64,000 nt of DNA from a virus (IMGVR_UViG_641736147_000004:40088-104087), one strand, 5' to 3'; positions 51,133 to 52,114 are shown, counted from the stretch's first letter. Made by a program: numbers and translations. Notes: generated by a model from the sequence alone, not told the origin.

Positions 51133-51448
51133 TTGTGAATTATATAGCTATGTGGACTTCTAACGGATAACTATATTATCTCCTAAACCTATATCATAGA
51201 TTTTAAAAAACTTTATAACCTTAATTTTTAAACTCTACAACTTTGAATTTTGAACATTGAAATTTAAACTTTACAACTTTGAACTTTTACAGATATTAAT
51301 GATATATCACTATTGTATATCATTGTTGTATAACGTATTCCTACGTTTATTCTTCTATTTTTCAATATCCCATTCTTTAAATTTTTAGTTGTGGTTGTAA
51401 CGCCAACCACAGGCGAATATAGATTCTTAGTTTTCATATAACTCACAA
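51133..51448 (-). ncRNA. Candidate ~315-nt structured RNA with heptamer repeat tract
   Basis: Ends pair over 13 bp (TTGTGAGTTATAT/ATATAATTCACAA); several internal hairpins; ~11 AAAGTTY-like units at 51207-51288. Confidence 0.65.
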
Positions 51449-51475
51449 TATATTACTATATAAATCTTATATTAC

Positions 51476-52114
51476 TTACTTATCATCTGAAATTGTTATC
51501 TTAGTTATAGCATTTGATTCACTTAGACAAGCATCTACTTCTGTTTCAAAACTATCTATTTCATCTGTTAATTTATCTATTTTCTCTTTTAGTTTGAGTG
51601 GATCAATTATTTCATACCCATGTTGTTTCCTGAAATTCCCTGTAAGTATTGCTACATCGTTATCCTTTTGTTTAGTTTCAGTACCAAACATAGTTTGTAA
51701 ATGTTCGTTTAATTGTTCTTCAACATCATTATTTCTTCTTTCATATGCATTTAATACTTGATTATAGTCATTTCTCATAGATACCAATAACATCTTATCT
51801 AGTTCTATACTACTTTTTCTTTCTATTGCTTCAGCAACAGTATATTCTTTATTTGCTATTATTACTTTTGTTATTGCATTACTAGCTACTATTTTAGTTT
51901 TTATTTCATTTCTTCTAGCAATTAAATCAACTATACTATCATAAGAAGATTTAGCACTTTGATTAAATTCCTCTCTAGTCTGAATACCGTCAACCTTCTT
52001 TGATGATTGCTTACATACTATTGCAAATTTACTTTCGCTTATCTTTTTATTGAATTTCTTATCTAAAGTTTTTAATTCTGTTAATGCTCTTGCTATTGTT
52101 ATTTCTTGTATCAT
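51476..52114 (-). CDS. Coiled-coil protein (loosely DIP1984-like)
   Basis: TIARALTELKTLDKK...TVAEAIERK...FETEVDACLSESNAITKI; predicted all-helical. Confidence 0.75.
   Translation of the reverse strand: MIQEITIARALTELKTLDKKFNKKISESKFAIVCKQSSKKVDGIQTREEFNQSAKSSYDSIVDLIARRNEIKTKIVASNAITKVIIANKEYTVAEAIERKSSIELDKMLLVSMRNDYNQVLNAYERRNNDVEEQLNEHLQTMFGTETKQKDNDVAILTGNFRKQHGYEIIDPLKLKEKIDKLTDEIDSFETEVDACLSESNAITKITISDDK

Follow-up and report, generated by a model that had tools for sequence, protein, structure and literature searches.

Short motifs that recur along an RNA are a feature of several described systems. TRAP works with 11 (G/U)AG repeats, repeat RNAs of the CsrB/RsmZ type likewise carry iterated motifs, the roles of these systems being attenuation and sequestration, and in the type III toxin-antitoxin system ToxIN repeats of ~36 nucleotides (nt) lie upstream of ToxN-type toxins. 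Structured RNAs are also encoded by phages and prophages near their transfer RNA (tRNA) islands; GOLLD and ROOL are of this kind, and GOLLD sometimes carries tRNAs in its linker (bioRxiv 10.1101/2024.12.08.627333, in the accessible part of that preprint). Here we describe an RNA of 316 nt in a stretch of 64,000 nt of viral DNA (IMGVR_UViG_641736147_000004:40088-104087, hereafter the window), taken from a 104 kb virus record of the IMG/VR database. It starts 27 nt after the stop codon of a gene for a 212-amino-acid protein, on the same strand. The RNA represents a widespread, pseudoknotted and apparently undescribed class, found in phage tRNA islands and coupled to one protein family in evolution and, it seems, in transcription. 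We suggest, at a probability of about one half, that gene and RNA make up one co-transcribed module that would yield a ribonucleoprotein. The parts of the module are listed below, with positions counted from the first nucleotide of the window.

51476..52114, minus strand: partner-protein gene, an open reading frame (ORF) of 212 amino acids, of the family of T5 gene T5.085
51133..51448, minus strand: structured RNA, bounded by a closing stem
51436..51448, minus strand: 5' strand of stem P1, pairing with 51133..51145 and followed by the conserved GAAAAC (51430..51435)
51133..51145, minus strand: 3' strand of P1, with a conserved (G)GCU motif before it (AGCU in the window, 51149..51146)
51427..51430, minus strand: 5' strand of the long-range pseudoknot helix P2, CUAA pairing with UUAG (51160..51163) in the 3' domain, a pairing read from the sequence of the window
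51390..51415, minus strand: PK1, an H-type pseudoknot, CGCC pairing with the loop GGCG of the hairpin UGUGGUU/AACCACA
51291..51389, minus strand: variable region of lineage-specific hairpins, where other phages have different hairpins or whole tRNA genes
51347..51332, minus strand: GNRA hairpin AACGTA-GGAA-TACGTT, in the variable region
51324..51298, minus strand: hairpin AATGATATA/TATATCATT, in the variable region
51205..51290, minus strand: heptad tract, ~12 units of the type (U/C)AAAGUU
51133..51214, minus strand: 3' domain, with a UAAAAUC motif, the P3' stem, an inner hairpin (51165..51183), AGCU and the 3' strand of P1
51195..51199 with 51148..51152, minus strand: P3' stem, within the 3' domain

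As far as the accessible part of the preprint describes them, GOLLD and ROOL are phage-encoded, pseudoknotted, often found near tRNA islands and of uncharacterised role, all of which holds for the present element. The element differs in being much smaller (267-472 nt among related loci), in its 7-nt-periodic tract and in having no match in Rfam, and it always stands behind one protein gene, whereas ROOL is reported in that part of the source without a protein partner. The guide RNAs of TnpB-type proteins (omega RNA or reRNA), derived from the 3' end of the message for the protein itself, are likewise encoded directly behind a protein gene and share its transcript; here, by contrast, the partner protein has no nuclease fold or family, and there are neither transposon ends nor any sign of a guide segment. 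In phage T5, the stable RNAs RNAI, RNAIII, RNAIV, RNA1, RNA2, RNA2H, RNA3 and RNAX lie in the same region and on the same strand as the T5 copy of the element and are transcribed with tRNAs, but none of the eight overlaps it.

A preliminary description of the stretch had proposed an RNA 27 nt past the stop of the gene, with paired ends, hairpins and repeats, and all of these elements were found where it had put them, on the minus strand. The stop codon occupies 51478..51476, and P1 is formed by TTGTGAGTTATAT (51448..51436) and its perfect complement ATATAATTCACAA (51145..51133), giving 13 bp. In PK1, the hairpin GTGGTT/AACCAC spans 51410..51391, with CGCC at 51415..51412 and the loop GGCG at 51404..51401. 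A 318-nt stretch folds at -68 kcal/mol, compared with -47.4 +/- 4.3 for shuffled versions (z -4.8), and none of 100 shuffles was equal. The GNRA hairpin is absent from the 90%-identical Clostridium phage D-1873. This phage, whose host is C. botulinum type D, matches the region around the element at 89.9% identity over 92% of its length.

To follow the element through its relatives, 80 viral loci were retrieved with the protein as seed, and the alignment used for covariation holds 36 RNAs (MAFFT). Gathering homologues and aligning the DNA downstream of the gene, which the preliminary description had offered as a check, showed that relatives keep both the structure and the repeats. Distant loci, with 37-50% protein identity, have a common layout of the 5' stem and GAAAAC, a C-rich run with its hairpin, variable hairpins, AAAGTT-type units, (UC)GAUAAAAUCC, GGCUG and the 3' stem. 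A script detected the end-to-end stem, with 11 or more of its 12 pairs, in 80 of 82 loci; its placement was wrong in locus L063, and in this locus as well as in the two that the script missed the stem is visible by eye. The gap between gene stop and RNA in the related loci measures 5-56 nt and contains no terminator.

Compensatory changes occur at 12 of 12 tested pairs of P1, where 99.1% of the alignment cells are paired, and at four of five pairs of P3' (97-98% paired). P2, in which the bases following GAAA pair with a loop of the 3' domain, crosses P3'; as read from the unrefined alignment (alignment A2, columns 19-23 with 519-523), all five informative pairs show compensatory changes and the helix is 75.3% paired. 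Taken jointly, P1, P2 and P3' are 93.2% paired in the 36 relatives, against 60.1% after shuffling, a level that none of 500 shuffles brought up to the observed one, and 32-42% when the strands are slid. RNAalifold, run on the raw MAFFT alignments, recovered P1 and P3' alone; the inner helices of the 3' domain are just 57-58% paired in the raw alignment and are not settled. The pseudoknot PK1, which had been suspected from the window, is the best script solution in the same arrangement in 22 of 28 RNAs. In it, the upstream C-rich run forms pairs with the 5' portion of the loop, and the partners covary (CCC:GGG, GGCU:AGCC, CCUG:CAGG, CGCC:GGCG).

G-U pairs are frequent in P1 (for instance 11 GU and 21 UG at two of the pairs) and would become A-C mismatches on the other strand, and the motif AA[AG]GTT is common 3' of the gene while its complement is rare. 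This combination of G-U pairs and strand bias argues that the element is an RNA read from the strand of the gene. The proposal of a closed, structured RNA on that strand is thus borne out by the covariation and by the fold z-score. The G-U pairs and the strand bias also decide against a DNA element, in which the heptamers would serve as iterons for replication origin, partition or packaging. Such a reading could appeal to A/T-rich direct repeats in a long non-coding gap and to the ParB-like gene at 59029..60249, in a phage that is presumably related to plasmid-like clostridial prophages. With the compensatory changes, the strand-specific G-U pairs and the strand-biased motif, with the same position and orientation relative to one gene in unrelated genomes including that of virulent T5, and with ends of T5 RNA-library contigs at the stem borders, we find it barely credible.

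The repeats themselves were analysed with Tandem Repeats Finder, which reports a period of 7 with 11.0 copies and 69% matches at 51208..51287. A lag of 7 gives the best self-identity in 34 of the 36 RNA tracts, and identity within the tract reaches 0.464 (lag 7) and 0.455 (lag 14), compared with 0.317 +/- 0.056 in shuffled tracts and 0.303 in that portion of the RNA which lies 5' of the tract. A period of 7 nt is incompatible with a continuous reading frame. In 28 of 36 RNAs the tract measures 96-101 nt, and longer tracts have a hairpin insertion; a short central hairpin is usual and is present in D-1873 and in locus L004, but not in the RNA of the window. This constancy of length suggests that structure or stoichiometry is fixed, unlike in a sponge, which could be of any length. 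The RNAs of TRAP, CsrB and RsmZ are similar in that single-stranded short motifs are iterated at regular spacing and can wrap or load a protein oligomer, and the constant tract would be in line with a set number of repeats like that of TRAP. The motifs, proteins and roles are however unrelated, and the tract described here is one arm of a larger pseudoknotted RNA whose protein binding is putative.

The tract might alternatively act as a decoy that titrates a host RNA-binding factor or nuclease, such as a defence ribonuclease or an RNA chaperone, with the protein helping or being unrelated. Large virulent phages are rich in tRNA genes, which are often interpreted as counter-defence, and iterated A-rich single-stranded motifs are what a decoy would display; a ProQ-like gene moreover adjoins the module in Aeromonas phage LAh_6. 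A decoy should however vary in its number of units, at odds with the near-constant tract, and there is no candidate host factor, so that we think this use of the RNA unlikely.

The tie between RNA and gene was examined with R1, a covariance model of the 3' domain trained on 36 sequences. In the 64-kb window R1 has one match, at 62.8 bits and E 1.8e-8. Of 85 sources seeded by the protein (36 of them training sequences), 84 show a single match, located 3' of the gene and on its strand; the exception is the T5-like locus L083. Among protein-seeded loci from bacterial genomes, on which R1 was not trained, 77 of 80 have a match, and only at the expected place; the misses are L088, L114 (which ends 316 nt past the gene) and L165. 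The reverse test was seeded by the RNA pattern alone, and 28 of the 80 viral loci listed pass R1 at E<=0.01: the gene lies directly upstream on the same strand in 27 of these, and the remaining locus has just 381 nt of room. In a sample of 150 Clostridia genomes, RNA and protein each occur once and in the same genome, which was the centre of the sample and had been chosen for having both; the 149 others have neither. The pair persists while its neighbours change (HU, PhoH-like, exonuclease and lysis genes, ligase, CCA-adding enzyme, terminase). The RNA had been regarded from the outset as tied to the adjacent gene, and their co-occurrence across very different phages and neighbourhoods, seeded from either partner, agrees with this.

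So close a linkage would also be expected of a cis-acting 3' untranslated region (UTR), a structure that stabilises or regulates the mRNA of the 212-amino-acid gene and has no role of its own. The distance of 5-56 nt from the stop codon, with no intervening terminator, speaks for it, and in several loci a terminator directly after the RNA can be recognised by eye. Two pseudoknots, invariant unpaired nucleotides and a periodic tract of fixed length nonetheless exceed what a stabiliser needs, and where tRNA genes lie inside the RNA, their processing would sever it from the mRNA. The T5 contigs described below, which start 3-4 nt past the stop and are deeper than the gene contig, point weakly in the same direction. 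A purely cis-acting role seems to us a minor possibility.

No described family accommodates the element. In Rfam 15, which covers GOLLD, ROOL, RNase P, tmRNA, 6S, drum and RAGATH among others and was searched over the whole window at gathering scores, two tRNAs and the RAGATH-18 RNA were matched, all outside the element; searching 50000-53000 at E<=5 and 51120-51460 (341 nt) at E<=10 returned only chance-level matches to animal long non-coding RNAs and microRNAs. The loci of D-1873, phiCD211, a T5-like phage and Deep Blue likewise gave no family for the element, in keeping with the preliminary description, which could name none. ARAGORN made no call of a transfer-messenger RNA (tmRNA) in the window, and Rfam had no match to one. 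We also considered a hammerhead-like reading (CUG...GAAA flanking P1) and a tRNA T-arm-like reading, and rejected both since the required core sequences are absent. Full-text searches found no literature on the RNA or on T5.085, though their coverage was incomplete, so that an earlier description elsewhere is possible.

One described RNA of possibly similar architecture is RNase P RNA, which may have in common with the element an end-to-end closing stem, an adjoining long-range helix that crosses a short stem, AAA(U)CC- and GGCU-like nucleotides in that short stem shortly ahead of the closing stem's 3' strand, and a tRNA context, although the motifs concerned are short. In the element the strands follow one another as P1, P2, hairpin, P3' (5'), P2 (3'), P3' (3') and P1, with P2 and P3' crossing, an order recalling the P1/P2/P3/P4 core of RNase P; the near-invariant AAA(U)CC and GGCU in P3' resemble its P4 motifs, and a catalytic ribonucleoprotein of this or another kind, acting on tRNA-island transcripts, would suit the setting. 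Against this, neither RNase P nor any other Rfam ribozyme matches the 341-nt stretch at E<=10, the bulk of the molecule is placed differently relative to the P4-like stem, and the A-rich joining region and the other conserved regions of RNase P are not recognised. None of the searches run relates the partner protein to RnpA, and hosts supply RNase P themselves. As the resemblance comes down to short motifs, we regard catalysis of this type as quite improbable.

The partner protein matches PHROG 1491 with E 2.3e-71, its residues 1-209 aligning to profile positions 1-210 of 211. Its family comprises 326 relatives by a word-indexed search and 3305 cluster representatives by an exhaustive one (E<=0.001). 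The AlphaFold2 model (mean predicted local distance difference test, pLDDT, 91.1) shows long helices packed as a bundle, and a small sheet to which both termini and a central hairpin contribute. In the sequence, the strands of this sheet are adjoined by three conserved motifs, SNAxTxV, TVAEAIERK and EVDxxLSESNAxTxI, and by invariant Arg and Lys residues; the conserved basic residues are R9, K15, K20, R67, R68, K72, R99 and K100. Judging from the order of helices and strands in the model, the motifs and the Arg/Lys residues would cluster at one end of the bundle.

Searches with the protein were otherwise uninformative as to function: nothing significant was found in Pfam or NCBIfam, a sequence profile search of the PDB gave just weak matches of coiled-coil type (HslU, for example), and Foldseek found no match for the model in the PDB at E<=0.001. 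All nine BFVD matches at E<=0.001 are uncharacterised, and the ESM Atlas returned unnamed viral clusters alone. The label 'tail fiber protein', attached to PHROG 1491 and to many records, is unsupported by position or fold. The tail genes of the window (minor tail protein, tape measure) lie at 2213..16582, and the partner gene stands among tRNA, HU and anti-repressor genes; the annotated neighbours of T5.085 are RNase H, exonuclease and endolysin.

An RNA antitoxin had been among the preliminary suggestions, and a protein gene adjoining a repeat-bearing RNA is indeed the arrangement of type III pairs such as ToxIN, in which a toxic protein is neutralised by the repeat RNA. This suggestion found no support: no defence or toxin model of PADLOC matches any of four family members tested at E<=0.1, and the module belongs to tRNA islands of virulent phages such as T5. 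Repeat size (7 nt against ~36 nt), gene order (repeats downstream rather than upstream) and the helical-bundle fold also separate the module from ToxN-type systems. We see next to no chance that it is a toxin-antitoxin pair.

By tblastn, the protein is encoded in 747 phage records, including those of 285 Salmonella and 140 Escherichia phages (largely T5-like) and of Vibrio, Pseudomonas, Bacillus, Klebsiella, Erwinia and Lactococcus phages. The RNA was seen downstream of the gene in T5 and T5-like pork29, Bacillus phage Deep Blue, Klebsiella phage KB57, Lactococcus phage AM1, Pseudomonas phages phiPsa374 and SYP, and the Erwinia jumbo phage RAY. In Aeromonas phage LAh_6 it is not recognisable in the 606-nt gap after the gene; in this phage, a gene for a putative ProQ-like RNA chaperone (L333 494..790) lies directly upstream of the family member. 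Among T5-like phages, the RNA region is at least 80% identical in 440 records (at least 90% in 438), and none of the 40 matches listed has an RNA annotation there.

The association with tRNA genes is equally broad. These lie within 3 kb in 27 of 46 scanned loci, always on the strand of the module, and several begin 4-18 nt past the 3' stem of the RNA. In Deep Blue, tRNA genes stand directly upstream (18 by ARAGORN, 19 annotated). Others are located inside the variable region of the RNA itself (L035 3703..3777; L045 3770..3937), and in Erwinia phage RAY this region holds tRNA-like segments (L331 ~1650..1720). Processing of such inserted tRNAs would split the RNA into two pieces that P1 and P2 hold together.

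Expression data come from T5 only, where the element occupies record positions 43137..43502, between T5.085 and a promoter, with no annotated feature. Its P1, PK1, tract and P3' can be read by eye; no position was found for P2. Eight 'stable RNAs with unknown functions' are annotated in the tRNA region of the T5 reference record, none overlapping the element; one of them, the 719-nt RNAX (NC_005859 40848..41566), lies 1.6 kb away. Thirteen RNA runs contain the T5 stretch, and four of them, from four studies, were examined, all as assembled contigs. With P1 predicted at L305 2148-2167 and 2485-2504, contigs of run X8 start at L305 2142/2143, 3-4 nt past the stop codon, preceded by letters that we take to be sequencing adapter. 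Contig depths in X8 are 328 over the gene, 2350-3833 over 2142-2202, 831 over 2173-2507 and 477 from 2519 on. In X9 a contig ends at 2492, with adapter-like letters beyond. In X1 and X5 the whole T5 stretch is in one contig and thus uninformative on ends, and stretches of X8 and X9 without contig cover are not counted as evidence. The contig ends hint at a discrete RNA of ~350-366 nt.

On these results, the RNA has a compact core of P1, two pseudoknots and the 3' stem, from which a variable arm and the A-rich, ~98-nt, 7-nt-periodic tract of fixed length project. Transcription would run through the 212-amino-acid gene into the RNA, since just 5-56 nt and no terminator separate the two, and the RNA would then be freed as a discrete species of ~320 nt. 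The helical-bundle protein, with its invariant Arg and Lys residues at the conserved end, may bind it. We tentatively suggest that several protomers dock on the ~12 heptads, as putative sites, to give a complex of fixed stoichiometry. As the module belongs to phage tRNA islands, we speculate that its target is tRNA or translation-related RNA metabolism during infection.

Several observations weigh against a ribonucleoprotein. The heptads are degenerate, with a median of 7.5 matches to a strict motif in each tract (range 0 to 12). Overall the protein is slightly acidic (median pI 5.6 and net charge -3 in 34 members) and has no recognised RNA-binding fold; the sole structural neighbour above background is 3KDQ, of uncharacterised function (VIA-align Z 10.9, rmsd 7.6 over 151 residues). 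The adjacency of gene and RNA could reflect shared expression or cis-regulation, and the T5 ends come from assembled contigs, which cannot prove starts, ends or levels. GOLLD and ROOL, finally, are described in the accessible part of the preprint as RNA-only assemblies (cages), with no protein partner identified (bioRxiv 10.1101/2024.12.08.627333).

These last examples raise the serious, though not favoured, possibility of an RNA-only machine, for instance a homo-oligomer of the ROOL or GOLLD type, with the gene linked through a shared transcript or pathway and the protein making no contact. Both of those RNAs occur near tRNA islands, as far as the same text goes, and tRNAs flank or enter the present element too; a protein that is not basic fits as well. 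On the other hand, neither gene nor RNA was seen alone in any search, whereas ROOL and GOLLD appear in that text without an identified protein partner, and the present RNA, at 267-472 nt, is much smaller. We thus still prefer a ribonucleoprotein formed by both products of the module.

The window itself is a phage region whose ORFs nearly all use the minus strand and have counterparts in phage families (portal, terminase-like, tape measure, minor tail protein, anti-repressors, HU). Two further features flank the module.

52154..52228, minus strand: tRNA-Trp gene, on the same strand as the partner gene and 39 nt 5' of it (ARAGORN; Rfam tRNA model 62.6 bits)
51015..51044, minus strand: terminator-like hairpin ~90 nt past the RNA, where the transcription unit might end, from a consensus scan only and weak

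The ~90 nt between the RNA and this hairpin (51045..51132, minus strand) are conserved in D-1873 as well as in L004; with their G+C-rich hairpins they might be a further small RNA or a site of processing. Directly 3' of the RNA, D-1873 has an insertion of ~540 nt relative to the window (L001 ~4300..4800; ~51070 in the window), which holds a drum RNA (Rfam 47.7 bits, L001 4665..4772) and T-arm-like sequences. The intergenic stretch behind the RNA seems to collect small RNA genes. On the other side of the module, an 88-nt tRNA-like gene at 52274..52361 (minus strand) scores 49.3 bits with the Rfam tRNA model and is not called by ARAGORN; by eye, its acceptor and T arm are normal, and the anticodon arm is lengthened to ~9 bp and has a C-rich loop. 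It is also present in D-1873 (L001 3032..3121).

Farther upstream, a large uncharacterised protein of PHROG 8308 is encoded at 53360..56375 (minus strand), here split into ORFs of 665 and 207 amino acids. In the clostridial and Bacillota branch a PHROG 8308 protein usually precedes the module, accompanied in varying order by HU, a PhoH-like ATPase and an SbcD-like exonuclease. The ParB-like partition nuclease gene mentioned above (minus strand; PHROG 12047, E 2.5e-73) is consistent with a plasmid-like prophage lifestyle. The RAGATH-18 RNA, at 63133..63194 (minus strand; 61.7 bits, above the gathering score), lies ~330 nt upstream of a transposase-family gene (61711..62799, minus strand, 362 amino acids, PHROG 506, E 1e-138).

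The boldest form of our proposal is that the module makes a catalytic or chaperoning ribonucleoprotein of the tRNA island: P1, P2 and P3' would be a minimal RNase-P-like or new ribozyme core, the tract, with a length of ~14 heptads, would wrap an oligomer of the T5.085 family, and the particle would process, guard or deliver phage tRNAs while the host is infected. We consider this a long shot. If true, it would be the first virus-encoded RNase-P-like or tRNA-directed ribonucleoprotein. Should our main proposal hold, a large and widespread RNA class with an obligate protein partner would have gone unannotated in hundreds of sequenced phages, T5 among them. Next to GOLLD and ROOL, this class would be the third type of ornate RNA from the tRNA islands of phages, and the first with a dedicated protein; and the widely propagated annotation as a tail fiber protein would be corrected. 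T5, one of the oldest model phages, carries the module, which makes it directly testable by genetics, crosslinking and immunoprecipitation (CLIP) and cryo-electron microscopy (cryo-EM). A dedicated protein would offer a handle on why large phages place structured RNAs around their tRNA genes.

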